From assembly GCA_016867835.1 (NCBI GenBank), contig VGIQ01000001.1, positions 10,094-74,093 on the forward strand: DNA of 64,000 bases, written 5' to 3'. Below are positions 12,982-40,455 of this stretch, in pieces; positions within the stretch are counted from its first letter, which is position 1; every line of letters starts with the position of its first letter. The stretch is from Calditrichota bacterium. Its GTDB lineage: Bacteria; Electryoneota; AABM5-125-24; Hatepunaeales; Hatepunaeaceae. A program made the translations under genes and the position numbers. The notes below the pieces were generated by a model. The model saw only the letters and a list, made by a program, of their open reading frames with translations, had not been told where the DNA came from and searched no databases.

Positions 12982-13050
12982 GGACAGGCATTCCTGCCTG
13001 TCCGGAATTTGGCATGGGGATGGGACGGGACAGACAAGAATGTCTGTCCT
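12982..13050. repeat. composite REP-like element: paired hairpins GGACAGGCATTCCTGCCTGTCC and GGGACAGACAAGAATGTCTGTCC nested in an outer palindrome
   Basis: Perfect 9-bp stems with 4-nt loops. The same family recurs at 32420-32476, 32556-32640 and 40383-40455. Confidence 0.7.
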
Positions 13051-13077
13051 ACTGTACAGATTAGATAGGAGTTCACA

Positions 13078-14232
13078 ATGTCGCTTGACTGGCTGCCTCG
13101 CGAAGGGGGATTGAAGGACCATGACCTCTGGGGGGATGAGTTCTTTGGCGGTGAAGCCCCCACCGTCCGTTATGAACTGAAACCGGTTACAGCCCCTGAC
13201 GGCAACGTTGCCGAAGGCTTGTTCACGGCCTGGATCACGCTCGATAACCCGGCGCAGTTCAATTCCTACACCACGCACATGGTGAAGGGCGTCATCGCCG
13301 GGTTTCACAAAGCCTCGATGGATCGGCGGGTGGTGGCGATCGTCTTTACCGCGGTCGGCGAACGCGCCTTCTGCACCGGCGGGAATACCCGGGAGTATGC
13401 CGAATACTACTCCGGCCGGCCGCAGGAATACGGCCTCTATATGGACCTCTTCAACGCGATGGTCGATGCCATTCTGAACGCCAAGAAGCCGGTCATCTGC
13501 CGGGTCAACGGGATGCGCGTGGCGGGCGGTCAGGAGATCGGAATGGCCTGCGACCTCACCATCGCAGCCGATACGGCCGTCTTCGGCCAGGCCGGTCCGC
13601 GACACGGTTCGGCGCCGGATGGCGGATCGACCGACTTCCTCCCCTGGATGCTGCCACTCGAGCAGGCGATGTGGAGCTGCATCAGTTGCGAACTCTGGAG
13701 CGCTTACAAGATGGCGCGCTACGGCCTGGTGTCGAAGGTTGCGCCGGTGCTGGTTCGCGCGTCGGGATCGGAATCCCAACCTGCGCGCGAAAAGTTCATC
13801 CGCAACCCTTTGGTCATCACCGACCGCTATGTCGAAGAGGGCGAGATCGTCTATGGCGAACCGGTCACCGGCGCTGCTGCAGCGTTGGCTAAAGAGCAGT
13901 TTAAGGCAGCGACCTACGACTTCAGCCGGCTCGACGCCGAGGTCAACAGACTGGTCTGGACCTTCACTAACCTTTTCCCGGGCTGCCTCATCAAGTCGAT
14001 CGACGGCATCCGGCAGAAGAAGAAGTTCTGGTGGGATCAGACCAAACTTGCCAACCGGCACTGGCTGGCGACGAATATGATGGGCGAAGCGTTCCTCGGC
14101 TTCCACGCCTTCAATACCAAGAAACAGACCGGGAAGGACACTATCGATTTCATCAAGTTCCGGCAGTTGCAAGCGGAGGGGCATCCGTTCGACGCGGAAC
14201 TGATGGAAGCCGTGTTGGGAAAGAAAATCTAA
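13078..14232 (+). CDS. crotonase-superfamily enzyme of ring-hydrolase length (candidate 6-oxocyclohex-1-ene-1-carbonyl-CoA hydrolase-like; specific function unproven)
   Basis: Crotonase core (AFCTGGN ... KPVICRVNGMRVAGGQEIGMACDLTIAAD). 384 aa is much longer than canonical 260-aa hydratases and matches the long ring-cleaving members. The 460-aa minus-strand ORF 12865..14247 is its shadow. Confidence 0.55.
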   Translation: MSLDWLPREGGLKDHDLWGDEFFGGEAPTVRYELKPVTAPDGNVAEGLFTAWITLDNPAQFNSYTTHMVKGVIAGFHKASMDRRVVAIVFTAVGERAFCTGGNTREYAEYYSGRPQEYGLYMDLFNAMVDAILNAKKPVICRVNGMRVAGGQEIGMACDLTIAADTAVFGQAGPRHGSAPDGGSTDFLPWMLPLEQAMWSCISCELWSAYKMARYGLVSKVAPVLVRASGSESQPAREKFIRNPLVITDRYVEEGEIVYGEPVTGAAAALAKEQFKAATYDFSRLDAEVNRLVWTFTNLFPGCLIKSIDGIRQKKKFWWDQTKLANRHWLATNMMGEAFLGFHAFNTKKQTGKDTIDFIKFRQLQAEGHPFDAELMEAVLGKKI

Positions 14233-14299
14233 CCACAAAGAACACAAAGATCACAAAGATCATAGGGAATACTTGGTGTTCTTTGTGCTCTTCGTGGTG
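14230..14299. repeat. palindromic gene-junction repeat (AACTAACCACAAAGAACACAAAGA ... TGTTCTTTGTGCTCTTCGTGGTG), copy 1
   Basis: Imperfect 25-bp inverted repeat with an 18-bp loop. It begins within the stop codon of the upstream gene. The same family occurs at 16884, 17825, 18661 and 24202. Confidence 0.7.
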
Positions 14300-14310
14300 A
14301 AAAGGAAAAA

Positions 14311-15057
14311 ATGGGCATTCTGAAAGGGAAAACCGCCATTGTCACCGGCGGGTCGTTAGGGATCGGCGCCTCAGTCGCCCTCAAACTCGCCTCCGACGGC
14401 GCCGATGTGGCGCTCAACTACCGCAAGCATGCGGACGAAGCCGAAGCTGTCGCCGAACAGATCCGCACCATGGGCCGCCGGGCGCTGGTGATCCAGGCCG
14501 ACACATCGTCCTTTGCCGATGCCGAAGCGATGGTCGCTCGCGTCAAGGCGGAATGGGGCCGGGTGGACATCCTCGTCTGTAACGCGGGGATCACCAGAGA
14601 CGCGGTGCTCTGGAAGATGACCGAAGAGCAGTGGGACGCGGTGATCGGGACGAACCTGAAGGGCTATTTCAATTACGTCCGCGCGGCTGCGCCGGTGATG
14701 CGCGAGCAGAAGTACGGGCGGATCGTCTGCGTCACCTCGATCAATGGGCTGCGCGGCAAGTTCGGCCAGTCGAACTACGCGGCCTCCAAAGCCGGCATCC
14801 ACGGGCTGGTGAAGAGCGCCGCCAAGGAATTAGGGCGGTCGGGCGTCACCGTCAACGCCGTCGCGCCGGGGATGATCCTGACCGATATGATGGCTGCGCT
14901 GCCGGAGGAGGTCAAGCAGAAGGCGGTGGACGAGACGGCGGTGGGCAGATTGGGGGAGCCGGACGACATCGCGCATGTGGTCAGTTTCTTCTGCAGTGAC
15001 TTCGCAAAGCATGTGACGGGGGAGATTATCAAGGTGGATGGGGGGCAGTATATCTGA
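14311..15057 (+). CDS. short-chain dehydrogenase/reductase (3-oxoacyl-ACP reductase-like; candidate hydroxyacyl-CoA dehydrogenase)
   Basis: TGGSLGIGASVA (TGxxxGIG), NAG, and Y..K catalytic motif (SNYAASKAG). 248 aa. Confidence 0.85.
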   Translation: MGILKGKTAIVTGGSLGIGASVALKLASDGADVALNYRKHADEAEAVAEQIRTMGRRALVIQADTSSFADAEAMVARVKAEWGRVDILVCNAGITRDAVLWKMTEEQWDAVIGTNLKGYFNYVRAAAPVMREQKYGRIVCVTSINGLRGKFGQSNYAASKAGIHGLVKSAAKELGRSGVTVNAVAPGMILTDMMAALPEEVKQKAVDETAVGRLGEPDDIAHVVSFFCSDFAKHVTGEIIKVDGGQYI

Positions 15058-15069
15058 CTTGATCTCCAT

Positions 15070-15250
15070 TCGCCCCCCCTTTGATTCCCCCCCGCAGAGC
15101 GGGGGGGAGAGAAGGCAGAAGCGCGCCTGCGACTATTACTCCCCCGCGCAAAGCGGGGGGGAGTGAAGATGGAACGTTGTAGTGTATTCGCAACCGCCTG
15201 ACAAGGGGGCAAGACGCTCTACTCCCCCGCGCAAAGCGGGGGGGAATTAA
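15070..15250. repeat. three GC-rich hairpin repeats (CCCCCGC-N4/5-GCGGGGG), two of them near-identical 27-mers (TACTCCCCCGCGCAAAGCGGGGGGGAG)
   Basis: Hairpins at about 15083-15103, 15138-15162 and 15220-15244. The same hairpin core occurs 4x in tandem inside the CDS at 19552-19712. Confidence 0.7.
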
Positions 15251-15264
15251 AGGGGGGGCTGGAT

Positions 15265-15702
15265 GTGCATTGGAGTGGAATTAGGGATGGAAAATCCCCA
15301 ATGAGAGCAATCCCAAAGCGCTTGCCTAAAACTAAGCCTCATTCCGTCAATTTCGCCCGCAGCCTACGCCGTAAGATGACTGACGCCGAGCGGCGGCTGT
15401 GGGCAAGGCTGCGGTCAGGGCGAATAAGCGCCAAATTCCGGCGTCAGGAGCCTATCGGATCTTACATCGTGGACTTTGCTTGCATAGAAAGAGGATTGGT
15501 CATAGAACTTGACGGCTCGCTGCATTACACCGATGAAGGCAAGAAGAGGGATGAAGTTCGGGACGCCTACCTGCGGTCGTTGGGATTCATGGTGTTGAGG
15601 TTCTCAGATCGGGATGTGATGAACAATATCGAGGGGGTATGTCAGGCGATCCTTGAGCAAGTTCAATGGAAAAACGAAGAAAAGGAAGAGTCAGGAAAAT
15701 GA
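15265..15702 (+). CDS. DUF559 / Vsr-like endonuclease-domain protein
   Basis: MTDAERRLWARLR ... KFRRQEPIGSYIVDFACIERGLVIELDGSLH is the DUF559 signature. Lower GC than neighbours. The start could be M at 15301. Confidence 0.7.
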   Translation: MHWSGIRDGKSPMRAIPKRLPKTKPHSVNFARSLRRKMTDAERRLWARLRSGRISAKFRRQEPIGSYIVDFACIERGLVIELDGSLHYTDEGKKRDEVRDAYLRSLGFMVLRFSDRDVMNNIEGVCQAILEQVQWKNEEKEESGK

Positions 15703-16886
15703 GTAACATCCTCGCCCTATCCGCTTGCCGGACTCCGATGGGGTCGTTCGGCGGGACGCTGAAGGATATGGCATCCTACGACATCGGAGCCGTGGCTGTG
15801 AAGGCCGCCGTCGAGCGCGCCGGACTGACGCCGGAGCAGATCGACGACGTGATCCTTGGCTCGTGCCGTCAAGCCGGCAATGGGCCTAATCCGGCTCGCA
15901 CGGCATCCGTCCGGGGCGGCATCCCGACCTCGGTGCCGGTCATCACCCTCAATATGGCATGCCCGTCGGGGATGCGAGCCATCCAGTTCGCGGCTAATGA
16001 AATCGCCTCCGGGATGGCTTCCACGGTGCTGGTCGGCGGCTTCGACTCGATGAGCACCATCCCCTATCTCCTTAAGGGAGCGCGCTGGGCTGGGTTCAAG
16101 ATGGGCGACCGCAAACTGGAAGACGGCTGGTCCGACGCCACCGACCCGCTCATCGGGCAGGGCATGGGCGCCACCGCTGAAAACCTCTTCGACAAGTGGC
16201 AGATCCCCCGCCGCGACCAGGATGAGTACGCGGCAGCCTCGCACATCAAGGCGCATACCGCGTGGGAGAACGGCTGGTTCGACGAGGAGGTTGTCCCCAT
16301 CACCTTCCCGCCCGACAAGAAGACCGGTGAGTCGGTGGTCTTCGCCAAAGACGAGACGATCCGCTTCCCTGTGGATGCCGAGAAGATGGGGAAACTGCCG
16401 CCGGTTTTCCGTAAGGACGGGACGGTAACAGCGGGCAATGCCTGCGGGATGTCGGACGGGGCTTGCGGGTTGGTGCTGACGTCATCAGAACGCGCTTCGG
16501 AACTGGGCGCCAAACCGCTCTTTTCGGTGGTCGAGATGGCATTCACCGCCACCGAACCGGCAACTATGGGCGAAGGTCCCGGCATCGCTATCCCTGCGGT
16601 GCTGAAGAAAGCCGGGATGACCCTTTCCGACATCGACCTGATCGAAGTCAACGAAGCCTTCGCCATTCAGGTGCTGGTGAACGAAAAGATGGTCGGCTGG
16701 GACCGGGATAAACTGAACATCCACGGCGGAGCCATCGCGTTAGGGCATCCGACCGGCATCTCGGGCGCGCGGATCGCGGTGACGCTCTATCATGCGCTGA
16801 AGCGGCTGAATAAGGAGATCGGGCTGGCTTCAATCTGCGGCGGAGGAGGTGTGACCGGGGCAATGATCATCAAGAGGGAAAACTAA
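15699..16886 (+). CDS. acetyl-CoA C-acyltransferase (thiolase II)
   Basis: MSNILALSACRTPMGSFGG at the N-terminus. Cys region NMACPSGMRAI. C-terminal GHPTGISGARI and ICGGGGVTGAM. Preferred start is ATG at 15699 (GGAAGAG/AGGAAA upstream) rather than 15666. Confidence 0.85.
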   Translation: MSNILALSACRTPMGSFGGTLKDMASYDIGAVAVKAAVERAGLTPEQIDDVILGSCRQAGNGPNPARTASVRGGIPTSVPVITLNMACPSGMRAIQFAANEIASGMASTVLVGGFDSMSTIPYLLKGARWAGFKMGDRKLEDGWSDATDPLIGQGMGATAENLFDKWQIPRRDQDEYAAASHIKAHTAWENGWFDEEVVPITFPPDKKTGESVVFAKDETIRFPVDAEKMGKLPPVFRKDGTVTAGNACGMSDGACGLVLTSSERASELGAKPLFSVVEMAFTATEPATMGEGPGIAIPAVLKKAGMTLSDIDLIEVNEAFAIQVLVNEKMVGWDRDKLNIHGGAIALGHPTGISGARIAVTLYHALKRLNKEIGLASICGGGGVTGAMIIKREN

Positions 16887-17366
16887 CCACAAAGGCACAA
16901 AGAACACAAAGACTTTCTTGTCATAAATGATAGAGATCATTCCTGAGGATATAGACCTGACCGGCAAGAATTTGTTGATGCGGCCTTTCAGGTTCACAAA
17001 GCGCTTGGGTCGGGGCTTCTTGAATCAGCCTACGAATCCTGCATCGCGCATGAGATTGTGTCGCGAGGGCTCGATGACAAGACGCAGGTGATTCTTCCCG
17101 TCATCTACAAAGGAGTCAGGATCGATGCGGGATTTCGATTGGATTTGGTCGGCGAAGACAAGGTCATGTCGAACTGAAGGCGGTAGAAGAACTCCACCTG
17201 ATTCGTGAAGCACAATTGATCACATATCTTCGACTCTCGGGCATTCGGCTTGGTTTCCTAATGAATTTCAACGCTAAACTTATTAAGAACGGAATTAGGC
17301 GAATTGTAGTATGATAAGTTTCCTCGAAACATATTCTTAGTGTTCTTCGTGCTCTTTGTGGTAACA
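16884..17366. repeat. palindromic gene-junction repeat, copy 2, with halves split by a ~420-bp insertion (GxxExxY pseudogene)
   Basis: Left half ACCACAAAGGCACAAAGAACACAAAGA at 16887-16913. Right half TTAGTGTTCTTCGTGCTCTTTGTGGTAAC at 17338-17366. The two halves are reverse complements. Confidence 0.65.
16927..17330 (+). pseudogene. GxxExxY-family (PD-(D/E)xK nuclease-like) gene disrupted by at least two frameshifts
   Basis: Frame 1 gives AAFQVHKALGSGLLESAYESCIAHEIVSRGL ... RIDAGFRLDLVGEDKV, then a stop. The conserved continuation VELKAVEELHLIREAQLITYLRLSGIRLGFLMNFNAKLIKNGIRRIVV is in another frame. The N-terminal DLTGK... is also out of frame. Confidence 0.6.
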
Positions 17367-17371
17367 TCCCG

Positions 17372-17875: not shown

Positions 17876-17899
17876 AGCGCCTTGTAATGGAAGAAAAGA

Positions 17900-18738: not shown

Positions 18739-20025
18739 GTGTTTTCTCAATTCAAATCCTGGTATGAAGAACGGCACGCTTACGCTAAAGGGTGGAAGGC
18801 GCGCACCGGCGGCAAAGTGATGGGCTGCTTTTGCAGTTATGCCCCCGAGGAAATCCTCGTCGCGGCGAACTGGCTCCCGGCGCGCGTGTTAGGCGGTCAC
18901 CAGCCCCAGGACGTCGCCGAAAAATATATGTTCGGGATGTATTGTCCCTTTTCCCGCGACGTCCTGGCGCAAGGGCTTAAAGGGCGCTACGACTATCTCG
19001 ACGGCATCCTGCTGACGCAAAGTTGCATTCACCTGCGGCAGTCGTTCAACTCATGGCAGATGCACGTTCCGGTGCCGTTCAATTACTACATCTATATGCC
19101 GCAGAAGGTTCAGACGCCTCATGCAGTGCCCTATCACCGGAGCGAACTGGCGAAGTTTCGCGCGGCTCTGGAGGCCTACGACGGGACAACGCTAAGTGAA
19201 GACGACCTGAACCGCGGCATCGCCGTCGTCAACGAGAACCGCCGCTTGATGCGCGAAGTCTATGAGTTTCGCAAAGGCGACAGCCCCAAGGTGACCGGCA
19301 CCGAAGCGATGTGGATGACCACCTCGAGCATGTGGGTTGATAAGGAGGAACATTCCGCCGAACTGCGGCGGGTGCTGAAGGAACTGCCCAACCGAAGCCT
19401 TACCCGCCAGACCGGGGCGAAATTGATGATCATCGGCTCGGAGAACGACGACATCCCGTTCATCGAGATGGTCGAAAAGGTCGGCGCGACGGTGGTGATG
19501 GACGAACACTGCACCGGGACGCGGTATTTTTGGAATCAATGTGAGGTTCCCCCCCTTCAATCCCCCCCGCTCAGCGGGGGGGAAGTGCGCGAGGATAAAT
19601 CCCCCCCGCTTAGCGGGAGGGAAGTGCGCGAGGATAAATCCCCTCCGCTTAGCGGGAGGGAAGTGCGCGAGGATAAATCCCCCCCGCTTAGCGGGGGGGA
19701 CGAGAAGGGGGGGCGCGACCTGATGACCGCGATCGCCCAGCGCTACATCGACCGCCCGACCTGCCCGGTGAAAGACTGGGAGGATCGCACCCGCTTCGAG
19801 CATATCCTGCGTCTGGCGCGGGAGTGGGAGGTGCAAGGCGCCATCATCATCCAGCAGAAGTTCTGCGACCCGCACGAGTGCGACATGGTGCCGCTAAGAG
19901 CCTTCCTGAACGAGCACGACATCCCGAACCTGATGCTCGAGTTCGACGCTACCACGCCGCTGGGGCCGTTTAGGATCAGGGTAGAAGCGTTCTTGGAGAT
20001 GATCGGGCAGGAGGAGTTGTTTTGA
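18739..20025 (+). CDS. 2-hydroxyacyl-CoA dehydratase / benzoyl-CoA reductase subunit family protein (HgdB/BcrB-like), carrying an in-frame 4x13-aa repeat insertion
   Basis: GTG start. Family-typical Cys-containing N-terminal region (GCFCSYAPEEIL ... LTQSCIHLRQS) and C-terminal FCDPHECD. 428 aa. Confidence 0.65.
   Translation: MFSQFKSWYEERHAYAKGWKARTGGKVMGCFCSYAPEEILVAANWLPARVLGGHQPQDVAEKYMFGMYCPFSRDVLAQGLKGRYDYLDGILLTQSCIHLRQSFNSWQMHVPVPFNYYIYMPQKVQTPHAVPYHRSELAKFRAALEAYDGTTLSEDDLNRGIAVVNENRRLMREVYEFRKGDSPKVTGTEAMWMTTSSMWVDKEEHSAELRRVLKELPNRSLTRQTGAKLMIIGSENDDIPFIEMVEKVGATVVMDEHCTGTRYFWNQCEVPPLQSPPLSGGEVREDKSPPLSGREVREDKSPPLSGREVREDKSPPLSGGDEKGGRDLMTAIAQRYIDRPTCPVKDWEDRTRFEHILRLAREWEVQGAIIIQQKFCDPHECDMVPLRAFLNEHDIPNLMLEFDATTPLGPFRIRVEAFLEMIGQEELF
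19552..19712 (+). repeat. 4 tandem copies of a 39-bp unit (AAGTGCGCGAGGATAAATCCCCCCCGCTTAGCGGGAGGG) inside the CDS, each containing a CCCCCGC-TTAG-GCGGG hairpin
   Basis: Translates in frame as SPPLSGGEVREDK / SPPLSGREVREDK x4. Copies differ at 1-2 positions. The hairpin core is identical to the intergenic repeats at 15070-15250. Confidence 0.8.
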
Positions 20026-20026
20026 A

Positions 20027-20068
20027 TGTAGAATGCAGAATGTAGAATGTAGAATGAGGAACGAGGGT
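20027..20068. repeat. short tandem repeat (GAATGTAGAAT)n
   Basis: gaatgtagaatgcagaatgtagaatgtagaatgaggaacgagg lies directly after the stop of the preceding gene. Confidence 0.6.
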
Positions 20069-20137
20069 TATTGCTTTGGAGGGGTATAGGTGTTATCTTT
20101 CAGAAAATCAGAATTTCTGAACGGTAGAGGGATTACA

Positions 20138-20407
20138 ATGAAAGTTCAACTACGTTCGAGACGCCAGATCACGCTTCCGGAAGAGGCGGTCAGCGAGTTG
20201 GGAATCAATGAGGGGGATGAGTTCATCGTGAAAGTCGAGGGCGATTCGCTGCGCCTGCTGCCGGTCGTTACCATTCCTCGGGATGAAGCCTATCTCTTCA
20301 CACCGGAATGGCAGAGGGCGCTTCAAACCGCCGAGAAGGAACTGCGCGAGGGCGAATACGAGACCTTCGCGAGCGTCGATGACCTGCTGAAGGACCTGAA
20401 CGACTGA
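20138..20407 (+). CDS. AbrB/MazE/SpoVT-family antitoxin
   Basis: MKVQLRSRRQITLPEEAVSELGINEGDEFIVKVEGDSLRLLPV is a swapped-hairpin AbrB-type motif. The ORF could start at 20090. Its stop overlaps the next start (ATGA). Confidence 0.6.
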   Translation: MKVQLRSRRQITLPEEAVSELGINEGDEFIVKVEGDSLRLLPVVTIPRDEAYLFTPEWQRALQTAEKELREGEYETFASVDDLLKDLND

Positions 20408-20673
20408 TGCAGATCATCCGGCTGAGTCAATTCAAGCGGATGTGGAAGAAACTGCCTGCGGACGTTCAGGCGAGGGCAGCGAAAGCGATCCGCCTGCTTG
20501 CCGCCGACCGGTCGCATCCGTCGCTTGGCTTGAAGCGGCTGCAACGGCTGCCTCAATACTTGGAGGTGCGCATCGACCGCGACCACCGGTTGATATGCCA
20601 GATGGGGAGCGAGGTTATCGTGCTGGTGGCGGTAGGGAGGCATGAGGTGTTGGGGAGGGTGAGGCAAAAGTGA
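20407..20673 (+). CDS. RelE/ParE-superfamily toxin (type II TA)
   Basis: 88-aa basic protein translationally coupled to the antitoxin. The pattern LPADVQARAAKAIRLLAAD ... YLEVRIDRDHRLI ... VLVAVGRHE resembles the RelE/ParE fold. Confidence 0.5.
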   Translation: MQIIRLSQFKRMWKKLPADVQARAAKAIRLLAADRSHPSLGLKRLQRLPQYLEVRIDRDHRLICQMGSEVIVLVAVGRHEVLGRVRQK

Positions 20674-20737
20674 AGCTAAACATCATCATTCCTTCGGAAG
20701 ATGGAATTCAGATCTACATTTCTTTGTAAAAACAGGA

Positions 20738-21742
20738 ATGAAGGCACTTTATTCAAATTGCATTTTCTGCGGCTGCGACTTAGACGAGACCAATAGATCT
20801 CGCGAGCATATCGTTCCACAGATCATAATGGGATCATTCATCAGTCAAGATGTCTGCAGATGCTGTAACAGCAAATTGAGCGAGGCGGATAAGCTTATAC
20901 TGAATGATCCACGGATTATTCAAGCTATAAACTGTCTTGAACTTTCTGATATTCAAAATAACATCCTGAGAATAGGTGAAACCATAGGAACAGATACACA
21001 GGATGGCGCCGAAAGAAGGTTTCATATGAAGGATGGGCACCCTATACTTATTCCCAAGCCATCTTTTACGGGTGAAAGAGTCGCGGATATAGATAACACC
21101 TTGCCTCTACTGCGCACATTGTTATCCAGAGACAAGGAGCTGAATTGGCCAAACGAAAAGGCAGGCCGATACATCGGTGAAATCGTAACGCCAGAATTTC
21201 TCAAACTCAAGCCGCATGAGAGTATCGATCTTCGAGAAGCGGGATACTCAATCGAAATGAGGCAGATTGGAAACATAGAGACACATTTTCCTGCCATTTC
21301 GTTTCAAGATCATAGATTGATCGCTAAAATAATATACGAGATCAGTTTCTATCTGCTTTCGCCCGAGATCGCTGAGTCAGCGATGAAAGATCTTGACTAT
21401 TATAGAGATGTAGCTTACGGAAGTATTGAAAGAGAAGAAGGCAGATTGTTTACAAGATCGGTGGAGCTTCTTAACGAACCCAACTATCTTCATAGGATTC
21501 AGATCTCATTCTCTGCCTCAAGCTTTCTTACGGTTGACATCGACCTCTTTGCAAGTGTAAACTATCACGCTATCATCAGAACTGATAGAACCTATCCGCT
21601 GCCAATTCTAAATTCCCGGCAGGTTACCGCTGTCGGGTTGGGGATGACCTTTAACGATACATCGAATAGACACTTTGCGATAAGGTACTTCAATGATGCA
21701 GATTGGGCGGTCGAAAGATTCGATGACGGAGAAGAACAGTGA
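20738..21742 (+). CDS. HNH-endonuclease-domain protein with ~270-aa uncharacterised C-terminal region
   Basis: CIFCGCDLDETNRSREHIVPQ ... CRCCNSKLSE is the HNH motif (CxxC, catalytic His in EHIVP, second CxxC). 334 aa. The region is markedly AT-richer than the window. Confidence 0.65.
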   Translation: MKALYSNCIFCGCDLDETNRSREHIVPQIIMGSFISQDVCRCCNSKLSEADKLILNDPRIIQAINCLELSDIQNNILRIGETIGTDTQDGAERRFHMKDGHPILIPKPSFTGERVADIDNTLPLLRTLLSRDKELNWPNEKAGRYIGEIVTPEFLKLKPHESIDLREAGYSIEMRQIGNIETHFPAISFQDHRLIAKIIYEISFYLLSPEIAESAMKDLDYYRDVAYGSIEREEGRLFTRSVELLNEPNYLHRIQISFSASSFLTVDIDLFASVNYHAIIRTDRTYPLPILNSRQVTAVGLGMTFNDTSNRHFAIRYFNDADWAVERFDDGEEQ

Positions 21743-22890
21743 CAATATCAACCCAAATGATCAATACTTGGACAGCTTCTTGGAAGCAACTGAGATACCT
21801 CGAGCGAGTGGGAGCATTACTTGCCATAGCAACTCTGACCGCCTCCTTATTTTATTGGGCGGGGAATGGATTCGCCGAGATACAAAATACACTTGGCTAC
21901 TATCCATCTGGAGTTGAAGAAGCGCTAGAGCAAAACCGCGAACTGGACCTAAAATATCCAACACGCCCGGGTCTAAGCAAGGATCTGGGAGAGGTTGCGG
22001 GAGTCTTGCTTTTCTTCATCGGAATTTGTCTAATCTTGTCATTGATTGATGCAGCCGTGAAATTGCCAATCTTGGCGGGATTGTTGGTCGCCCCAATATC
22101 TTTCCTATCGGGCAAGGGAACCACACATGAATACCTCATTCTATCCTTGCTCAACAATAACGCTATTGGTGGCAGAGGCGTGCTTTCACTTATCATGATA
22201 ACGCTTTCCGGAGTATTTGCGATGAGGGCTTTTCGGAAATCTTGGAGATTAAATTTCTCATTGCTAACTGCACTTGGAGTATTCGCGTCTTGGATAGGTA
22301 ATTTCATGGGTCAAGAATACAGCTATCGCGCCGGTATTTTGACGGCAGCTGCTGGAATTCTCCTTATCATAGCGCCAAAATCACTTAGGGATTCTTGTCT
22401 GACTTCCATCGAAGTGACTGGCGAAATATCTAAAGGTAGGCTTGACAGCTTGATTCAAAAAGCCACATTGTCTACCAGAATATTTGGCATTGCCTATTCT
22501 ATTCTTGGGCTTATTCTTGTTCTGGGAGTTGCAGGAACTATGGGAGATGAGTTTCTACAAGGAATCAAGAGAGGGGCACCTGTTAGTGATTCAAGCGGAA
22601 TCTTAGTGCTGGCCGTCATTCAGATATTGATAGGGATAGCTTTGCTTATGCTCTCTTTGATATCATCTAATCCAGCAATGCGGCGTCGATATCAGTTTTC
22701 CATCATCATAGGGATCATCTGGATCTTATTGCCTTATGAGGCACTTGACTTGTTAGCCCGATTGACCGATCCCGGCTTAAATGCTTTTGTAAAACTGTTG
22801 ACGTCTATTGGAATGATTATTGTACTCAAGACCGCAATTAGAGCTCGGGACGCCATTTATATGAATGTCAGCAATTCCAAGGAAACATAA
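21739..22890 (+). CDS. polytopic membrane protein (about 8-10 predicted TM helices), unknown function
   Basis: GTG start overlapping the upstream stop (GTGA). Repeated hydrophobic helices (VGALLAIATLTASLFYW, VLLFFIGICLILSLI, LPILAGLLVAPISFL, ILLIIAP, IFGIAYSILGLILVLGVAG, ILVLAVIQILIGIALLMLSLI, IIIGIIWILLPY, IGMIIVL). Low GC. Confidence 0.6.
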   Translation: MTISTQMINTWTASWKQLRYLERVGALLAIATLTASLFYWAGNGFAEIQNTLGYYPSGVEEALEQNRELDLKYPTRPGLSKDLGEVAGVLLFFIGICLILSLIDAAVKLPILAGLLVAPISFLSGKGTTHEYLILSLLNNNAIGGRGVLSLIMITLSGVFAMRAFRKSWRLNFSLLTALGVFASWIGNFMGQEYSYRAGILTAAAGILLIIAPKSLRDSCLTSIEVTGEISKGRLDSLIQKATLSTRIFGIAYSILGLILVLGVAGTMGDEFLQGIKRGAPVSDSSGILVLAVIQILIGIALLMLSLISSNPAMRRRYQFSIIIGIIWILLPYEALDLLARLTDPGLNAFVKLLTSIGMIIVLKTAIRARDAIYMNVSNSKET

Positions 22891-31664: not shown

Positions 31665-32165
31665 GTGTCCGACCAGCGACTCTCCGCCATTATGTTCACC
31701 GACATCGTCGACTACACAAGCAAGATTCGCATCGATGAAGCAAAAATGCTGCGCCTGCTGGAGGTGCACAACCGGATGCTGCGCGAGATTTTCGACCGGC
31801 ACGAAGGCGAGGTCGTCAAGGGCACCGGGGACGGCTTTCTGGCGCGCTTCAACAGCGCGACCAGCGCGGTTCTGGCGGCATTGGAGATCCAGAAGGACCT
31901 GACTGAATACAATCGGGGGAAGCCGGACCACGACCAGATTGAGGTGCGCATCGGCGTTCATCTGGGGGACATCGTCATTCGGGAGGGCGATGTTTTCGGC
32001 GACGGCGTCAACGTGGCGGCGCGGGTGCGGCCCCTCGCGGTGCCGGGCGGCATCTGCATCACTCGCGCCATCTACGATGTGGTGCACAAGAATATGGGGC
32101 AGGAAGTTTATCCGTTTGGTAAGAAACGTCTAAAAGGACTTGATATTACTGGGGGCAGTTTATAG
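31665..32165 (+). CDS. stand-alone class III adenylate/guanylate cyclase catalytic domain protein
   Basis: AIMFTDIVDYTS ... KGTGDGFLARF ... RIGVHLGDIV matches the cyclase homology domain. 166 aa, GTG start, no sensor domain. Confidence 0.7.
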   Translation: MSDQRLSAIMFTDIVDYTSKIRIDEAKMLRLLEVHNRMLREIFDRHEGEVVKGTGDGFLARFNSATSAVLAALEIQKDLTEYNRGKPDHDQIEVRIGVHLGDIVIREGDVFGDGVNVAARVRPLAVPGGICITRAIYDVVHKNMGQEVYPFGKKRLKGLDITGGSL

Positions 32166-32285
32166 TTGCCCTTTCCGAGAGTGGGTGTTCGCGTAGGGTC
32201 GGATTCCAATCCGACCATCTCTTGGGCGATTTGGAAATCGCCGCCGTTAATATTACCTGGTGCAATATATTGTGTCAAGAAGGGC

Positions 32286-32392
32286 GCTTGTCATGCTGAA
32301 CGCAGTGAAGCATCACGACCTAAGATGGACATTCCAGACGAGATCCTTCACTTCGTTCAGGATGACACTAATCGATGCACCCCTTAATGTTA
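32286..32392 (+). repeat. ~105-bp MITE-like dispersed repeat with internal ~25-bp terminal inverted repeats, copy A
   Basis: gtcatgctgaacgcagtgaagcatc ... gatccttcacttcgttcaggatgac. It is the near-exact reverse complement of 51722-51828. Confidence 0.75.
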
Positions 32393-32419
32393 ATGGGTGC
32401 AGATAATTGTGGTATTCTC

Positions 32420-32476
32420 CAGTAGGGCAGGCATTCCTGCCTGCCCTTTGGACGGACAAGAATGTCCGTCCTACTG
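32420..32476. repeat. composite REP-like element (GGGCAGGCATTCCTGCCTGCCC + GGACGGACAAGAATGTCCGTCC)
   Basis: Same hairpin family as 12982-13050. Confidence 0.7.
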
Positions 32477-32555
32477 ATGCTACTATTTGATGCCCCGATT
32501 AATAATAGGATTTTCCTCTCACCCAATCCTTATTAATAACTGCAGAAAAGCGTTG

Positions 32556-32640
32556 CCTTGGCAGGGGGCGGACATTCTTATCCGCCCCCTGCCAAGACGA
32601 GCTTCCAATTCAGGGCGGACAGGAATGTCTGCCCTCCAAG
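32556..32640. repeat. composite REP-like element (long hairpin CTTGGCAGGGGGCGGACATTCTTATCCGCCCCCTGCCAAG + GGGCGGACAGGAATGTCTGCCC)
   Basis: 16-bp perfect stem. Same family. Confidence 0.7.
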
Positions 32641-32750
32641 AACAACAATATGCACTCATTAATAAAGAGCGGATTCGGACCACACAGTGCTTTCCATTAG
32701 CCTTGTATTGAGCCAAGTGAGTAGTTTCGCTCGAACAGCCTTAATATCCC

Positions 32751-33926
32751 TTGCATAAAGTCCTCACCGGCAATTCCGCCGTCAGTCATGCCGTTCGGCT
32801 GGCGCGAGCCGAGGTGATCGCCGCCTATCCGATAACGCCGCAAACGTCCATCGTCGAAGAACTCGCCGAGATGTGTGCCGACGGCCGGTGCAGCGCGCGA
32901 TTCATCCACAGCGAATCGGAGCACTCCTCGATGTCGGCTTGCATCGGAGCGTCGGCGGCCGGTGCGCGGGCCTTTACAGCGACCTCGAGCCAGGGGCTTG
33001 CCTATATGCACGAGATGCTCCACTGGGCAGCCGGCGGCCGGCATCCGGTAGTGATGGCAGAAGTGAACCGCAGTCTTGCGCCGCCCTGGACGATCTATAC
33101 CGACCAGCAGGACAGTCTCTCGCAGCGCGACACCGGCTGGCTGCAGTTCTATTGCCGGGACAATCAGGAGGTGCTCGACAGCACTCTGCTCGCGTTCAAG
33201 GTCGCCGAGCGCGTCTCATTGCCGGCGATGGTGGTACTCGATGCGTTCGTCCTGTCGCACACCGTCGAACCGGTCGATATTCCCGATCAATCTCTGGTCG
33301 ATCGGTTCCTGCCCCGGCGGGAGGCGGCTTACCGGATCGATCCCGACCACCCGGCAGCCTTCGGTGGGATGAAGGGTGTTCAAGCCTGGATGGAGACGCG
33401 GGTAGAACTCGAACAGGTGATGGAAGCGACTCCAGATCTCATCGCCGAGGAAGCGGCGCTCTGGAAGTCCCTCACCGGACGATGCCTGAATGCCCTTCAA
33501 GCCTACCGGATGGAGGACGCCGAGGTGGCACTGCTGGCCGCTGGAACAGCCGCCATCACTATGACCCTCGCCGTCGATCACCTGCGGGAGGCAGGCATAA
33601 GGGCTGGAGCCCTCGGACTATGGCTCTTTAGACCCTTTCCCGTCGCCGATCTACGTCGGCGGTGCGAACGTCTCGAGCATCTCGTCGTCTTCGACCGGTC
33701 GTGCTCGTATGGGCATGGCGGCATCTTCGCAGCCGAATGCCGGTCAGCGCTTTATGACCTCCCGCAACGGCCCCGGGTGATCGGTCTGGCCGGTGGACTG
33801 GGCGGCCGGGAGATAGATCCGAAGACGCTTGCAGAGGAAACGGCGCGCAGGGTAGAAAGCAGAGGGCAGAAGTCAGGAAATGCGCTATTGGAGTGGTTCG
33901 GAGTGAGGGGAAGGGGGGGGCAGTGA
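32751..33926 (+). CDS. 2-oxoacid:ferredoxin oxidoreductase alpha subunit (PorA/VorA/KorA-like)
   Basis: AVSHAVRLARAEVIAAYPITPQTSIVEEL is the N-terminal domain signature of OFOR alpha subunits. TTG start, 391 aa. Confidence 0.65.
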   Translation: MHKVLTGNSAVSHAVRLARAEVIAAYPITPQTSIVEELAEMCADGRCSARFIHSESEHSSMSACIGASAAGARAFTATSSQGLAYMHEMLHWAAGGRHPVVMAEVNRSLAPPWTIYTDQQDSLSQRDTGWLQFYCRDNQEVLDSTLLAFKVAERVSLPAMVVLDAFVLSHTVEPVDIPDQSLVDRFLPRREAAYRIDPDHPAAFGGMKGVQAWMETRVELEQVMEATPDLIAEEAALWKSLTGRCLNALQAYRMEDAEVALLAAGTAAITMTLAVDHLREAGIRAGALGLWLFRPFPVADLRRRCERLEHLVVFDRSCSYGHGGIFAAECRSALYDLPQRPRVIGLAGGLGGREIDPKTLAEETARRVESRGQKSGNALLEWFGVRGRGGQ

Positions 33927-36441: not shown

Positions 36442-37386
36442 ATGCTGCCCAAGTTTGACATCCATAGACCGGCGACGCTCCCGGAGGCGCTCCGGTATCT
36501 CGCCGACCATCAGGATCGTCGCGTCAAGGTGCTTGCCGGAGGCACTGACCTGCTCGTCGATATGCGCCTGCCGGTCATTCCGAACGGCACCCGGCCGCCG
36601 CTTGGCCGTCCGCCGGAGGGCATCTGGGAAGCGCGTAGTTCCTCTGCCGGGCGCCCTGAGGTCCTTTGCGCGCTCTGGAGGTTGAATGAACTGCGCGGCA
36701 TTCGCATAGGGACGGGAGTTATTCGTATCGGAGCGCTTACGACGATCGCCGAACTCGAGCGTTCGCCAGTCGTCCGGGAGCATCTCCCGGCGCTTGGCGA
36801 TGGCGCACGGCAACTCGGCTCGGCACCGGTGCGCAACCGGGGAACTTACGGCGGCAACCTTTGCAACGGTCGGCCAGCCGCCGATACTGCCATCCCAACT
36901 ATCGCGCATCGGGGCCAGGTTCAGGCTGTCTCGCTACGAGGTGAAAGGAATATCCCGGCGGAAGATTTCATCATCGCGCCAGGAAGGACCGCCCTCGAAC
37001 CAGACGAGATCGTCTCCAACGTCATCTTCGATCTGCCGTCCGACTGCCGGATGCAGAGCCGTGGCGCATATCTCAAACTAGCCCAGCGCAAGAGCCTCGA
37101 GATTGCGGTCGTCGGAGTTGCAGGAGCGGTTTGGGTGGACCGAGTCGGGCAGGTGTCAGATGCTGTCATCGCCCTCGGAGCGGTCGGTCCCCGGCCATTG
37201 GTAGCAAGGCAAGCATCGGAAGCGCTTATCGGGTCGGAGATGGATGAGTCGCAGATGCTGAAAGCCGCAGTGTTGGCGTCGGAAGCCGCGACTCCGATTA
37301 CCGATTACCGGGGCGGAAAGGACTACCGGAGCAAAATGGTCGCCGTGCTGACGCGACGGGTTTTGGAGCAGATCTATGGCGCTTGA
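36442..37386 (+). CDS. molybdenum hydroxylase FAD-binding (medium) subunit (CoxM/XdhB/HcrB-like)
   Basis: FDIHRPATLPEALRYLADHQDRRVKVLAGGTDLLVDMRL is the FAD-binding domain. C-terminal CO-dehydrogenase flavoprotein domain. Confidence 0.8.
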   Translation: MLPKFDIHRPATLPEALRYLADHQDRRVKVLAGGTDLLVDMRLPVIPNGTRPPLGRPPEGIWEARSSSAGRPEVLCALWRLNELRGIRIGTGVIRIGALTTIAELERSPVVREHLPALGDGARQLGSAPVRNRGTYGGNLCNGRPAADTAIPTIAHRGQVQAVSLRGERNIPAEDFIIAPGRTALEPDEIVSNVIFDLPSDCRMQSRGAYLKLAQRKSLEIAVVGVAGAVWVDRVGQVSDAVIALGAVGPRPLVARQASEALIGSEMDESQMLKAAVLASEAATPITDYRGGKDYRSKMVAVLTRRVLEQIYGA

Positions 37387-37894
37387 GTCTCTTCCAGAGT
37401 CGCAGGGCGCCCTAAGAGCGCCAGGCAAAGTCCTGATGAGCCTCCGTGTCAACGGCATTGCCTATGACGTCGCCGTCGAACCGCGCCATATGCTGGTCGA
37501 ACTCCTGCGCGACGACCTCGGCTTGACCGGCACCAAGGTCGGCTGCAACATGGGCGATTGCGGTGCCTGCACGGTGTTGCTCGACGGCCTGCCGGTCTTC
37601 TCGTGCCTGGTGCCGGCGCTTGAGGTTGACGGACGCGATGTGACCACCATCGAAGGTCTGGCCGAAAACGGGCACTTGCACCCGCTGCAAGAGGCTTTCG
37701 TCGAGGTCGGCGCCATCCAGTGCGGCTTCTGCACCCCCGGCATGGTGCTCTCGTCGCTGGCGCTCCTGCGGGAGACGCCCGATCCAACGGACGAAGACAT
37801 ACGAAGAGCCTTGTCCGGCAATCTCTGCCGATGCACGGGGTATCAAAAGATATTCGAGGCGATACGGGAAGCGAGTAAGCGAGCGAGCGTTTAG
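37376..37894 (+). CDS. molybdenum hydroxylase [2Fe-2S] small subunit (CoxS/XdhA/HcrC-like)
   Basis: CNMGDCGACTV and CGFCTPGMV are Cys motifs. Confidence 0.8.
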   Translation: MALESLPESQGALRAPGKVLMSLRVNGIAYDVAVEPRHMLVELLRDDLGLTGTKVGCNMGDCGACTVLLDGLPVFSCLVPALEVDGRDVTTIEGLAENGHLHPLQEAFVEVGAIQCGFCTPGMVLSSLALLRETPDPTDEDIRRALSGNLCRCTGYQKIFEAIREASKRASV

Positions 37895-37898
37895 CCCG

Positions 37899-40289
37899 AT
37901 GAGCAAGTATCAGATTCTCAACAGCCGCGCGCCGCGGATCGATGCCCTTGACAAGGTAACCGGACGGGCGCTCTACACGGACGACATCGCCCGCCCGGGT
38001 GCGCTCCACTGCGCCATCCTGCATAGCCCCATTGCGCATGGCCGCATCCTTCGGATCGACACCTCGCGAGCCGAGCGGCTGCCCGGCGTCAAGGCGGTCA
38101 TCACCGGCAAGGATATCGGCAGCATAGTCTATGGCGTTTCTCCAGCCCGTTACGACGAGTCGATACTGGCTCGCGAACAGGTGCGCTATGTGGGTGACGA
38201 GGTGGCCGCCGTTGCCGCGATAGACCTCGACCGGGCTCGCGAAGCCGTCTCATTGATTGAAGTCGATTATGAGGAACTACCCCCGGTTCTGGATGGCCAG
38301 ATCGCAATGGACGACGGTCAGCCGCAATTGCACGACAAGTACCCGCGCAACATCTGCGCCGAGGTGCACTGGAACTTCGGAGATTGCGATGCCGCCGAAC
38401 GTGAGGCAGATTTCATTCGCACCGATCGGATCATTTCGAAAATGCAGGATGCCGCATTCCTCGAGCCGCAAGCGGTTCTGGCTGAAGTCGATGCCTCGGG
38501 GCGGCTCACGATGTGGTCATCGACGCAGGCTCCTCACTATGTCCAGCGGACGCTCGCAATGGCTTTGGGACTGCGTCCGGAGAAAGTCCGGGTGATCAAA
38601 CCGGCGGTTGGCGGCGGTTTCGGGCCAAAAGCCTCCTGCTCTACAGCCGAACTGGTCGTCTGTGCACTCGCGCTAAGAACCGGCAAGCCGGTGCGGATGA
38701 CCTTCGACCGCGAGCAGGTTTTTCTCCACTCCCGCGCCCGGCATCAGTTCTTCCACACGATGACGACCGGCGTCAAGCGCGACGGGACGCTCCTCTTCCT
38801 GCGCCATAAGTGCATTCTCGACGGTGGAGCCTTCGCCAGTTTCGGCATCGCGACGGTCTATTATGCCGGGTCGTTGTTAGGCGGCCCCTACCGGCTGAAG
38901 AATATGACCTACGACGGTTATCGGGTGGTAACGAACAAGCCCGCCTGCGGCGCTCAGCGCGGCCATGGCGCGGTCATCGCGCGGGCGCTCTTTGAGACGC
39001 AACTTGACCGGATCGCGGGAGAACTGCATATCGATCCCCTCGAACTGCGACTTCGCAATGTCATGGGGCGAGGCGAAACGACCTGCAACGAACTCTACAT
39101 GTCGAGCCTGGGGATGCGGGAGTGTCTTGAGGCAGTAAGGGATGTTGCCGGATGGGACTCGCAGCAAAACTTGGAGGGTGGGATTCTTCCCGCCCGCGAT
39201 GACAGCCGAGTTCGTCGCGGGCGCGGCGTCGCGTGCGGCTTCTTCGTATCGGGAGCCGGCTACCCGATTTACCGGTCGGAGACCTTCCACGCGACGGTCG
39301 TTACCCGCGTCAGCGAGACTGGCGGTCAGGTAATCGTCGAGTCTGGCGCCGCCGACATCGGGCAGGGTTCGGATACGATGCTGGCGATGATCACCGCCGA
39401 AGTGCTCGCCGTGCCCCTCGCCGATGTCAAAGTGGTCAGCGGCGACAGCGACCTCTCGGTCGATTTGGGGGCATACTCAAGCCGGACGACGCTGATGGCC
39501 GGAGCCGCCGCCCGGGAAGCCGCCGAAGCATGCCGGGACCAGATACTAACCGAAGTTGCCCGCCGCTGCGGCGTCGAGGCGGCTCATCTGCGCATCGAGC
39601 AAGGCTATGTCAAGTCGTCGAACGGGTCGCTCGACTTTGCAGCCATCCGCAAGGAGTTCGCCGCCGAGCATTTCAACTTCGGGGACATCCCCGATACGCC
39701 CGACCTCACCTTCCGCGAAGCTGCACGGATCGCCTACCTTGGGCGGGGGACGATCGTCGGAACGGGCAAATACAAACCGCCGAAATTGGGAGGTTCGTTC
39801 AAAGGCGCTACGGTCGGGACTTCACCAGCCTTCGGTTGCTCGGCGCAGATCGCCGAGGTCGCGGTCGATATGGAGACCGGCGAAGTGACTGTTGAGCGGG
39901 TGGTTGGAGCTCACGACTGCGGCTTTGCGATCAACCGTACGCAAGTCGAAGGGCAGATGCAGGGGTCGGTTTCGATGGGGATGGGCGAGGCTCTTTTCGA
40001 GCAGATACACTACGACCGACGGGGCAACATCCTGAATGCCAACCTCGCCGAATACAAGATTCCGACGGCGATGGACATTCCCAGGATCGAAGCCGTCGTC
40101 ATCGAGACCGACGAACCGAACGGCCCGTTCGGCGCCAAGGAGGTCGGCGAAGGCGCCATTATGCCGACGATCCCGGCTATTCTCAATGCTATCTACGACG
40201 CCGCCGGCGTCCGGATCGAAGAACTGCCCGCGACGCCGGAACGGATAGTCACCGGGTTGAAGGCAGAGGACTTAGGCGGTTGTAAGTAG
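37899..40289 (+). CDS. molybdopterin-binding large subunit of a xanthine-dehydrogenase-family hydroxylase (candidate 4-hydroxybenzoyl-CoA reductase-like alpha subunit)
   Basis: 796 aa. Ald_Xan_dh-type regions (VAAVAAIDLDRAREA, GGGFGPK, GQGSDTM, AVDMETGEV). Confidence 0.75.
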   Translation: MSKYQILNSRAPRIDALDKVTGRALYTDDIARPGALHCAILHSPIAHGRILRIDTSRAERLPGVKAVITGKDIGSIVYGVSPARYDESILAREQVRYVGDEVAAVAAIDLDRAREAVSLIEVDYEELPPVLDGQIAMDDGQPQLHDKYPRNICAEVHWNFGDCDAAEREADFIRTDRIISKMQDAAFLEPQAVLAEVDASGRLTMWSSTQAPHYVQRTLAMALGLRPEKVRVIKPAVGGGFGPKASCSTAELVVCALALRTGKPVRMTFDREQVFLHSRARHQFFHTMTTGVKRDGTLLFLRHKCILDGGAFASFGIATVYYAGSLLGGPYRLKNMTYDGYRVVTNKPACGAQRGHGAVIARALFETQLDRIAGELHIDPLELRLRNVMGRGETTCNELYMSSLGMRECLEAVRDVAGWDSQQNLEGGILPARDDSRVRRGRGVACGFFVSGAGYPIYRSETFHATVVTRVSETGGQVIVESGAADIGQGSDTMLAMITAEVLAVPLADVKVVSGDSDLSVDLGAYSSRTTLMAGAAAREAAEACRDQILTEVARRCGVEAAHLRIEQGYVKSSNGSLDFAAIRKEFAAEHFNFGDIPDTPDLTFREAARIAYLGRGTIVGTGKYKPPKLGGSFKGATVGTSPAFGCSAQIAEVAVDMETGEVTVERVVGAHDCGFAINRTQVEGQMQGSVSMGMGEALFEQIHYDRRGNILNANLAEYKIPTAMDIPRIEAVVIETDEPNGPFGAKEVGEGAIMPTIPAILNAIYDAAGVRIEELPATPERIVTGLKAEDLGGCK

Positions 40290-40382
40290 AGTTCCTTAAG
40301 ATAATGGTGGATCTATTCGCTCCATTATCTTCCCCCCACCGCTCGCCTCTTATACTACTGGCAGATTGTAGTTGCCATTCCT

Positions 40383-40455
40383 GGAGGGCGGACATTCCTA
40401 TCCGCCCTGATTCAGTATTCCTTTCCAGAAGGGCGGACAGGAATGTCCGCCCTCC
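40383..40455. repeat. composite REP-like element (GGAGGGCGGACATTCCTATCCGCCCT + GGGCGGACAGGAATGTCCGCCCTCC)
   Basis: Same family, with outer palindrome GTTGCC...GGCAAC. Confidence 0.7.

Follow-up and report, generated by a model that had tools for sequence, protein, structure and literature searches.

Systems made up of repetitive extragenic palindromic (REP) sequences and REP-associated tyrosine transposases (RAYTs) have, to our knowledge, been studied almost only in Proteobacteria. In that phylum each species has its own REP sequence, and the RAYTs are thought to be inherited vertically. The present analysis concerns a set of small hairpin elements in a 64,000-nucleotide stretch of DNA, called here the window, which spans positions 10,094 to 74,093 of contig VGIQ01000001.1 in the Calditrichota bacterium metagenome-assembled genome (MAG) GCA_016867835.1. 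These elements are very probably REPs that belong to the GTAG-tagged superfamily, and they form head-to-head dimers whose feet point outward. The unusual feature is that the 22-25 nt element is found nearly identical, with compensatory changes in its stem, under many phylum labels (at least 15).

Several described systems are built in a similar manner. In REP-Sm (SMAG) of Stenotrophomonas maltophilia and REP-Mb of Marinomonas, GTAG lies directly 5' of a perfect, GC-rich stem of 8-9 bp with a loop of 3-4 nt (PMC3733652, PMC8266576). Head-to-head dimers predominate in these systems and the RAYT genes are flanked by REPs (Di Nocera 2013; Corneloup 2021); the loop and the pairing are kept and the outer stem pairs co-vary. 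The hairpins described here are alike in these respects. They differ in the sequences of the stem and loop, in having one subfamily (B) whose foot is not GT[AG]G, and in their hosts, which belong to soil and sediment phyla and not to the Proteobacteria. The cognate RAYTs found in other genomes carry NHVH, WQ and YIxxNP in about 200-240 aa and, as judged by motifs only, do not fall closest to subclass 2.5 (DH[LF]H), that of the S. maltophilia RAYT. The REPs and bacterial interspersed mosaic elements (BIMEs) of Escherichia coli (PDB 4ER8; PMC3479197) also have the GTAG foot, alternate in orientation within clusters and are intergenic. Unlike the hairpins of the window, the palindromes of E. coli REPs are imperfect, with a bulge and longer stems, and BIMEs have defined linker motifs; at the four dimers of the window the alternating orientation is present, but conserved linker motifs are not seen.

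The REP doublets forming hairpins (REPINs) of Pseudomonas fluorescens SBW25 (PMC3116915) consist of two inverted REPs with a short spacer, presumed to be mobilized by a single-copy RAYT. The dimers of the window share this plan, and one of them (dimer 4) folds into one long hairpin. A REPIN is conserved as a whole doublet, spacer included, which is not the case here. The spacers share neither length (3-25 nt) nor sequence, and the stem changes are compensated within a hairpin and not between the arms of the doublet. The conserved unit is therefore the single REP and not the doublet. The subterminal hairpins of the IS200/IS605 insertion sequences (IS608, ISDra2) are comparable in being single-strand hairpins with a 5' guide tetranucleotide, served by a Y1 HUH transposase, and the IS200/IS605 transposases are the next-best PDB matches of the RAYT family after 4ER8. 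In contrast to these elements, the window has no transposase or TnpB between its hairpins, which are dispersed 25-nt units and not the ends of a 1-2 kb element.

The unit in the window is about 25 nt long and is composed of a 5' foot, a GC-rich stem of 9 bp and a loop of 4 nt. The consensus of its eight copies in the purine-loop orientation is GGRCRGRYA-RGAA-TGYCYGYCC. When up to two mismatches are allowed, this pattern has nine matches in the window, against 0.11 expected (100 shuffles); the ninth match, at 42364, is not a hairpin. On the plus strand, the loop reads TTCY in the left copy of each pair and RGAA in the right one, so that the two are inverted. All four dimers are head-to-head with their feet pointing outward, and this identical arrangement is non-random. 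The TTCY loop and the two loop-proximal pairs (C-G and A-T) are fixed, whereas the outer stem changes only as compensated pairs. Between the mates of a dimer one to three stem positions are changed, and each change is compensated inside its own hairpin; it is the pairing of the single hairpin that is maintained. Subfamily A (sites 1 and 2) has the foot GTAG, which directly abuts all four of its hairpins, each on its own strand (aGTAGGACAGG...CCTGTCCTACt). In subfamily B (sites 3 and 4) the foot is GGAG or CTTGGAG. The spacers of the four dimers are 24, 3, 25 and 23 nt long and have no common sequence.

The window region is an anaerobic benzoyl-CoA degradation cluster, as established by exact protein look-ups, and all nine copies of the family are intergenic in it, at a density of one per 7-8 kb. 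Dimer 1 occupies the 98-bp spacer between an HMGL-like gene and the gene for 6-oxocyclohex-1-ene-1-carbonyl-CoA hydratase. Its left copy (12979..13003, plus strand; hairpin core 12982-13003) is a GTAG foot followed by GGACAGGCA-TTCC-TGCCTGTCC, and the foot (12979-12982) overlaps the last base of the TAG stop codon of the HMGL-like gene. The right copy (13028..13052, minus strand; core 13028-13049) is GGACAGACA-AGAA-TGTCTGTCC followed by CTAC, the minus-strand GTAG, and differs from the left one at a single stem position, compensated within the hairpin. Dimers 2 and 3 lie together in a 585-bp spacer between a cyclase-domain gene and the gene for a 2-oxoacid:ferredoxin oxidoreductase subunit. 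The left copy of dimer 2 (32422..32446, plus strand; core 32425-32446) is GTAG with GGGCAGGCA-TTCC-TGCCTGCCC. It is separated by 3 nt from the right copy (32450..32474, minus strand; core 32450-32471), GGACGGACA-AGAA-TGTCCGTCC with CTAC. Three stem positions are changed between GGGCAGGCA/TGCCTGCCC and GGACGGACA/TGTCCGTCC, all of them compensated within the hairpin.

Subfamily B begins with dimer 3. The core of its left copy (32557..32596, plus strand; core 32566-32587), GGGCGGACA-TTCT-TATCCGCCC, is part of an extended stem of 16 bp, CTTGGCAGGGGGCGGA...TCCGCCCCCTGCCAAG. The right copy (32613..32640, minus strand; core 32613-32634) is GGGCGGACA-GGAA-TGTCTGCCC with a TCCAAG tail, i.e. a minus-strand foot CTTGGA. 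Dimer 4 is located between the convergent genes for 4-hydroxybenzoyl-CoA reductase and a DUF3467 protein. Its left copy (40380..40407, plus strand; core 40386-40407) has the foot CCTGGAG and GGGCGGACA-TTCC-TATCCGCCC with one C.A mismatch, and its right copy (40431..40458, minus strand; core 40431-40452) is GGGCGGACA-GGAA-TGTCCGCCC with TCCAAG. A Logan contig of the same strain terminates at 40458, the end of dimer 4, which is a typical assembly break at a repeat. A search of the window for the apex of the hairpin finds one further copy only, a decayed single one at 7887..7905 (minus strand), CGGATA-GGAA-TGTCTG(CCC), which has no recognizable foot and lies 35 nt downstream of the aconitase small-subunit gene.

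An earlier note on this DNA had placed four hairpin pairs at these sites, and a reading of the sequence confirms all eight copies. The four loops that it gave (TTCC, TTCT, AGAA and GGAA) are all present, and the palindromes that it saw enclosing the pairs do exist, being formed by the feet of the two copies in inverted orientation (GTAG...CTAC at sites 1 and 2, CTTGG/TGGAG...CTCCAAG at sites 3 and 4). The family is also separate, as proposed, from the C7GC hairpins at 15086-15242 and 19545-19715. The stems, described in the note as perfect over 9-16 bp, are for the most part of 9-10 bp in a list of all perfect hairpins; one has 16 bp (32557-32596) and closes an 8-nt loop, but another has 8 bp and the C.A mismatch. 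The intergenic placement holds for every copy, but the four pairs occupy three intergenic regions, as sites 2 and 3 share the 585-bp spacer. Of the three half-sites in the note, the one at 7885-7902 belongs to the family but is the decayed whole copy, and the other two are complete hairpins of a different family. The comparison with REPs and BIMEs is borne out by the short GC-rich palindromes, the GTAG foot, the multiple intergenic copies and the inverted dimers, but not by linkers of the E. coli BIME type, which are absent. A random strand distribution, taken in the note as a sign against REPs, cannot serve as a test because head-to-head dimers are symmetric.

As single-stranded DNA, the four sites fold with z scores of -5.5 to -11 relative to shuffled sequences. 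Sites 1-3 form twin hairpins, with an additional outer helix at site 2, and site 4 forms one long hairpin. The hairpins are short and GC-rich, within the range that defines a REP (basal stem of 7-20 bp, loop of 2-5 nt), and subfamily A has the one-sided GT[AG]G located 0-2 nt 5' of the stem. With GTAG immediately 5' of a stem of 9 bp that closes a 4-nt loop, subfamily A agrees with the operational definition of REPs (Quentin 2018, PMC6006769), and the head-to-head dimer is the commonest type also in Di Nocera 2013 (PMC3733652).

The distribution of the hairpin was examined by an exact scan of one genome per species (596 Gb, both strands) for GGRCRGRYARGAATGYCYGYCC, a pattern that did not force the arms to pair. 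At least 120 stretches contain it, against about 17 expected by chance according to our own arithmetic. The hits are in MAGs, and several are in complete chromosomes, which include OZ220733.1, OY969111.1, OZ243981.1 and CP070742.1. At least 15 phylum labels occur among the matches listed, including Acidobacteriota (many Pyrinomonadaceae), Planctomycetota, Verrucomicrobiota, Kiritimatiellota, Lentisphaerota, Latescibacterota, Gemmatimonadota, Chloroflexota, Bacteroidota, Ignavibacteriota (Ignavibacteria), Zixibacteria, Hydrogenedentota (Hydrogenedentes), Calditrichota and Pseudomonadota. The arms are perfectly complementary in 115 of the 142 hits among these matches. At the three variable pairs, complementarity is kept in 136, 126 and 136 of the 142, against 79.8, 102.8 and 73.0 under independence. 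The hairpin structure is under selection. In the RGAA orientation the 3' tail is TAC in 74 and CAC in 44 of the same hits (118/142), which is GTAG or GTGG on the other strand, and the opposite flank is not conserved; the TCC tail, as in subfamily B, is found in 9 of the 142. In a relaxed search of other genomes, head-to-head dimers are the most frequent (36), ahead of head-to-tail (13) and tail-to-tail (6) ones. Open frames of at least 150 codons contain 101 of 201 hairpins (50%) compared to 88% of the background bases, which is a depletion.

Some GTAG families are known to be common to distant organisms (Di Nocera 2013, PMC3733652). It is quite possible, though still tentative, that a single REP type (GT[AG]G with GGRCAGRCA-TTCC-TGYCTGYCC) and its RAYT subclade are common, nearly letter for letter, to bacteria labelled as at least 15 phyla. 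A full-text search with six exact 22-mers returned no paper, and the supplements of Di Nocera 2013 contain no matching sequence string. As far as such a search can tell, the hairpin family is undescribed; consensus sequences printed in figures are not searchable, so that an earlier description remains possible, and REPs as a kind are already known.

The earlier note had also suggested a search for a RAYT and had named the absence of any such gene as a sign against REPs. The window contains none, but the same hairpin directly flanks RAYT genes (Y1_Tnp, RayT) in other genomes. Among 120 listed loci selected by the hairpin motif, two (L039, a Chromatiales MAG, and L065, a Prolixibacteraceae MAG) carry a gene with HUH and Y-x-x-x-NP motifs. 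Both genes match the Pfam family Y1_Tnp (PF01797; E values of 3e-9 and 4e-9) and have hairpins within 25-40 bp on both sides, which are tandem GGCGGACA-TTCC-TGTCCGCC units in L039 and the exact GTAGGACAGACATTCCTGCCTGTCC in L065. The two proteins share 31% identity and belong to a family with more than 7600 homologues, many of which are named 'REP element-mobilizing transposase RayT' by JGI. The best PDB match of this family is E. coli TnpA-REP (4ER8, E 1.8e-7), with the catalytic motifs aligned. MPNHVH, LWQ and YIxxNP are invariant or nearly so in the associated proteins, which thus combine the HUH, W-Q and Y-x-x-x-N-P motifs, PF01797 and homology to 4ER8 that define RAYT/TnpA-REP. In its motifs (NHVH, WQ and YIxxNP, in about 200-240 aa) the family seems to resemble subclasses 2.4 or 2.7 of Quentin 2018; the resemblance concerns the motifs only.

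A scan of metagenomes with a profile of 24 RAYT sequences gave 80 loci. Nearly all of them are flanked by GC-rich hairpins with TCY/RGA or TTCC/RGAA loops, typically inverted across the gene, and about 12 show the CA-RGAA-TG apex together with outer stems that vary. Within 300 nt of a RAYT gene, the density of the apex octamer CARGAATG in the 80 loci is 5.3 times that found further off. A RAYT flanked by the same REP is found in L039, L065, L122, L123, L130, L132, L138, L139, L179, L184 and L205. When the RAYTs are clustered by average linkage (UPGMA) on pairwise protein identities, most of those flanked by RGAA-loop hairpins adjoin one another, and so do most of those flanked by hairpins with an AGGR loop. 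The mean identity within and between loop types is 0.48 vs 0.44 (RGAA) and 0.52 vs 0.45 (AGGR), a modest advantage. This clustering by loop type fits the co-evolution of RAYTs and REPs reported in PMC6006769 and PMC8266576.

Two further observations were made at the RAYT loci. Some RAYT genes have long head-to-tail arrays of the amplified REP on their upstream side, such as the 12 copies of GGGGGACA-TTCC-TGTCCCCC with a period of about 45-48 nt at 1341-1921 of L139; at 4948-5050 of L039 at least three REP copies stand beside a masked N run. In four members of the RGAA subclade (P0057, P0083, P0254 and P0256) an N-terminal HSDR_N (PF04313) or PF17761 domain is fused to, or called together with, the RAYT, and as a consequence these proteins are named 'type I restriction enzyme R subunit' by JGI. 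They may represent a real fusion or a systematic mis-annotation.

The junction occupied by dimer 1 can be compared in three metagenomic relatives (L210, L211 and L212), which have the same gene order and a hydratase that is 79-81% identical. The spacer between the HMGL-like and hydratase genes contains a different dimer in L210, made of two GTCACGTGAC palindromes (4163-4237), a single different REP, TGTCAGGCG-TCCT-CGCCTGACA, in L212, and no hairpin in L211. The same GTCACGTGAC palindromes flank both sides of the Y1_Tnp gene of L210, 6 kb away in the region 10330-11000. The protein encoded by this gene has 163 aa (SHLH ... YIHYNP), and the gene is inserted between two benzoyl-CoA reductase subunit genes. 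Among the three relatives the family of the window is found only in L211, as one decayed dimer in 50 kb. As the same junction has differing REPs or none, the dimer is an insertion and not a conserved regulatory site. Differing REP families at one junction in related genomes is the behaviour of dispersed mobile repeats.

By homology with the studied systems, it is possible to propose how the elements might spread. When the DNA becomes single-stranded, for example in the lagging-strand template, the foot-bearing strand would take on its hairpin form. The loop and the upper stem would then be bound by a HUH-tyrosine nuclease of the RAYT/TnpA-REP type, the product of a single gene located elsewhere in the genome, and the foot tetranucleotide would allow this enzyme to position the cleavage and rejoining. 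Such cut-and-rejoin events might then seed copies in intergenic DNA, often right after stop codons. In vitro, the S. maltophilia REPs are bound only by way of the foot-bearing strand, binding depends on a base in the loop and cleavage on the GTAG foot, and mismatches in the stem lower the activity (PMC8266576). The conservation found here, with the loop, two closing pairs and the foot fixed and the outer stem free as long as it is paired, mirrors these requirements. A cognate RAYT that acts in this manner is predicted to be encoded by this MAG.

Several observations weigh against the assignment to RAYT-mobilized REPs. No RAYT is encoded in the 64-kb window, as judged by the regular expression H.H...Y...NP and by phmmer with two RAYTs on all open frames of at least 70 codons, and a search with the subclade profile finds no Calditrichota-labelled RAYT among the best 120 relatives of the cognate subclade. 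Subfamily B lacks the GT[AG]G foot; its hairpin core is otherwise of the same family. With spacers conserved neither in length (3-25 nt) nor in sequence, a replicative unit of the Pseudomonas type, i.e. the whole doublet, is not demonstrated. A strain-level pair of occupied and empty target sites was not obtained, the sole close contig (L209) beginning inside a gene, and recent mobility is therefore not shown. Finally, the exact apex is present at only about 12 of the approximately 85 RAYT loci examined, and the RAYTs P0290, P0073 and P0096 have hairpins of other types at their flanks, or none whose stem reaches 7 bp. The exact apex is therefore tied to a RAYT subclade and not to the whole family.

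The hairpins might instead function in RNA, as stabilizers of 3' ends, attenuators or terminators, or as brakes on translation at stop codons, each selected for its own gene and with no transposase involved. The stems are very stable, every copy closely follows a coding region, with dimer 1 beginning at a stop codon, and E. coli REPs have secondary roles of this kind (background in PMC6006769). None of the copies is followed by a T/U tract (the tails are TACTG, TCCAAG, GGAATT, TTTGGA and TGATTC), and a terminator scan of 32100-32800 found one chance-level site only, which is not one of these stems; a terminator is therefore excluded as their primary nature. No Rfam family matches: Rfam 15 gives no match at the gathering score in the whole window, and an E-value scan of 32150-32760 returned only sub-threshold matches to miRNA precursors (17-23 bits, compared to cut-offs of 61-100). 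The stem mismatches in the window are all G.U on the RGAA strand and thus compatible with pairing in one RNA strand. Selection on that strand was considered and dropped because the 142 listed copies split 9 vs 19, in the opposite sense, so that the orientation of G.T has no consistent strand bias; one inherited variant dominates, and the pattern is not neutral. Furthermore, head-to-head copies have opposite orientations on any single transcript, the conserved foot is one-sided and equals the RAYT guide tetranucleotide, and the orthologous site in relatives has unrelated hairpins or none. An origin at the RNA level is thus unlikely, but RNA functions are compatible as a secondary, exapted role. 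Possible secondary effects on the mRNA are protection of the 3' end and stalling of the ribosome at the stop codon next to dimer 1.

An inverted dimer with a variable center that is present in some relatives and absent from others is also what would be expected of miniature inverted-repeat transposable elements derived from a classical DDE insertion sequence, the hairpins being terminal inverted repeats mobilized as double-stranded DNA. Terminal inverted repeats do not require each arm to be itself a perfect, internally compensated palindrome, as is the case here. The four dimers show no direct target-site duplication, single and tandem copies occur in other genomes, and the only recurrent neighbor gene encodes a Y1/HUH transposase, which makes this origin very improbable. 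Even less credible are palindromic operators for a dimeric regulator of aromatic-degradation genes. Perfect palindromes within a benzoyl-CoA degradation cluster might suggest them, but the covariation of the stems keeps the pairing and not a fixed half-site, the same sequence stands beside unrelated genes in at least 15 phyla (among the matches listed), and orthologous spacers with the same gene order lack the dimer. RAYT-associated REPs remain the reading that we prefer.

For the annotation of this genome, ordinary dispersed REP dimers are of little consequence. They explain assembly breaks and should not be called as small open reading frames or small RNAs. If the sharing of one REP type across phyla is true, it contradicts the working rule that REPs are species-specific. 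Either the code by which RAYTs recognize their hairpins would have been frozen since before the lineages diverged, or REP/RAYT pairs would be transferred between phyla frequently, far more often than the vertical-inheritance model allows. The hairpin thus offers a test of whether such pairs are ancient residents or travellers across phyla. A conserved apex and foot beside RAYTs as divergent as 31% identity also amounts to a natural experiment on what the RAYT reads.

The window also contains a second REP-like family, CCGGACG-AGGR-CGTCCGG, with a foot of the GTG type that stands on the TCCT strand, 2-3 nt away from the stem. It is represented at 40892..40916 (minus strand) by the hairpin 40892-40909, CCGGACG-AGGG-CGTCCGG, with a minus-strand GTGC 3 nt from the stem. 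At 51887..51916 (minus strand) the hairpin 51887-51910, CGGGTGGACG-AGGA-CGTCCACCCG, has the minus-strand foot GTGGTG, and the copy at 51933..51957 (minus strand; hairpin 51933-51950, CCGGACG-AGGA-CGTCCGG) follows it in a head-to-tail tandem. Hairpins with loops of the AGGR type flank RAYTs in L164, L169, L170, L182, L183 and L186, and the RAYTs of L164, L170, L182, L183 and L186 form a distinct cluster; a second RAYT is therefore predicted in this genome. The AGGR-loop family would be the substrate of this second RAYT of the same protein family. The prediction is thus that the MAG encodes two RAYTs of the NHVH/YIxxNP clade, one for each hairpin family.

At least four types of repeat are piled up in the 585-bp spacer that holds dimers 2 and 3 (32166-32750). 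A third doublet in it, at 32197-32242, consists of GGTCGGAT-TCCA-ATCCGACC and then GGCGATT-TGGA-AATCGCC; hairpins of this style, with TCCA/TGGA loops, flank a RAYT in L143. At 32290-32370 and, in the opposite orientation, at 51744-51823 there is an element of about 80 nt whose inverted arms of 25-27 nt, GTCATGCTGAACGCAGTGAAGCATC ... GAGATCCTTCACTTCGTTCAGGATGAC, are imperfect. Its 25-mer (up to five mismatches) also occurs in loci of other phyla, namely in L037 (Terriglobales), in L058, L082 and L119 (Latescibacterota), in L088 (four times) and in L210. It is another widely shared intergenic repeat and has no Rfam match.

The C7GC hairpins mentioned above, TCCCCCCCGC-NNN-GCGGGGGGGA, form three dispersed copies and a 39-nt tandem array of four, and are bracketed by C7 and G7 runs. 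The hairpin TCCCCCCCG-CAAG-CGGGGGGGA of this type is also present in the syntenic L211 (10633) and L212 (13008 and 13429); it is therefore common to relatives, unlike the REPs. The junctions of the benzoyl-CoA cluster are rich in small selfish or accessory genes. In L210, L211 and L212, genes for 23S_rRNA_IVP (PF05635), PDDEXK_3, DUF559, PIN and Y1_Tnp proteins are found at differing junctions, and in the window an HNH endonuclease gene (20738-21742) lies in a patch of low GC content (0.475 in 20001-22000, compared to about 0.60). A further hairpin is duplicated 34 nt apart at 2375-2394, ATGCTGAC-CTTC-GTCAGCAT, and 2409-2428, ATGCTGA-CCTTCA-TCAGCAT, the latter overlapping the start codon of the gene that begins at 2409. 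A similar stem, GATGCTGA-ACC-TCAGCATC, is found at 62398.

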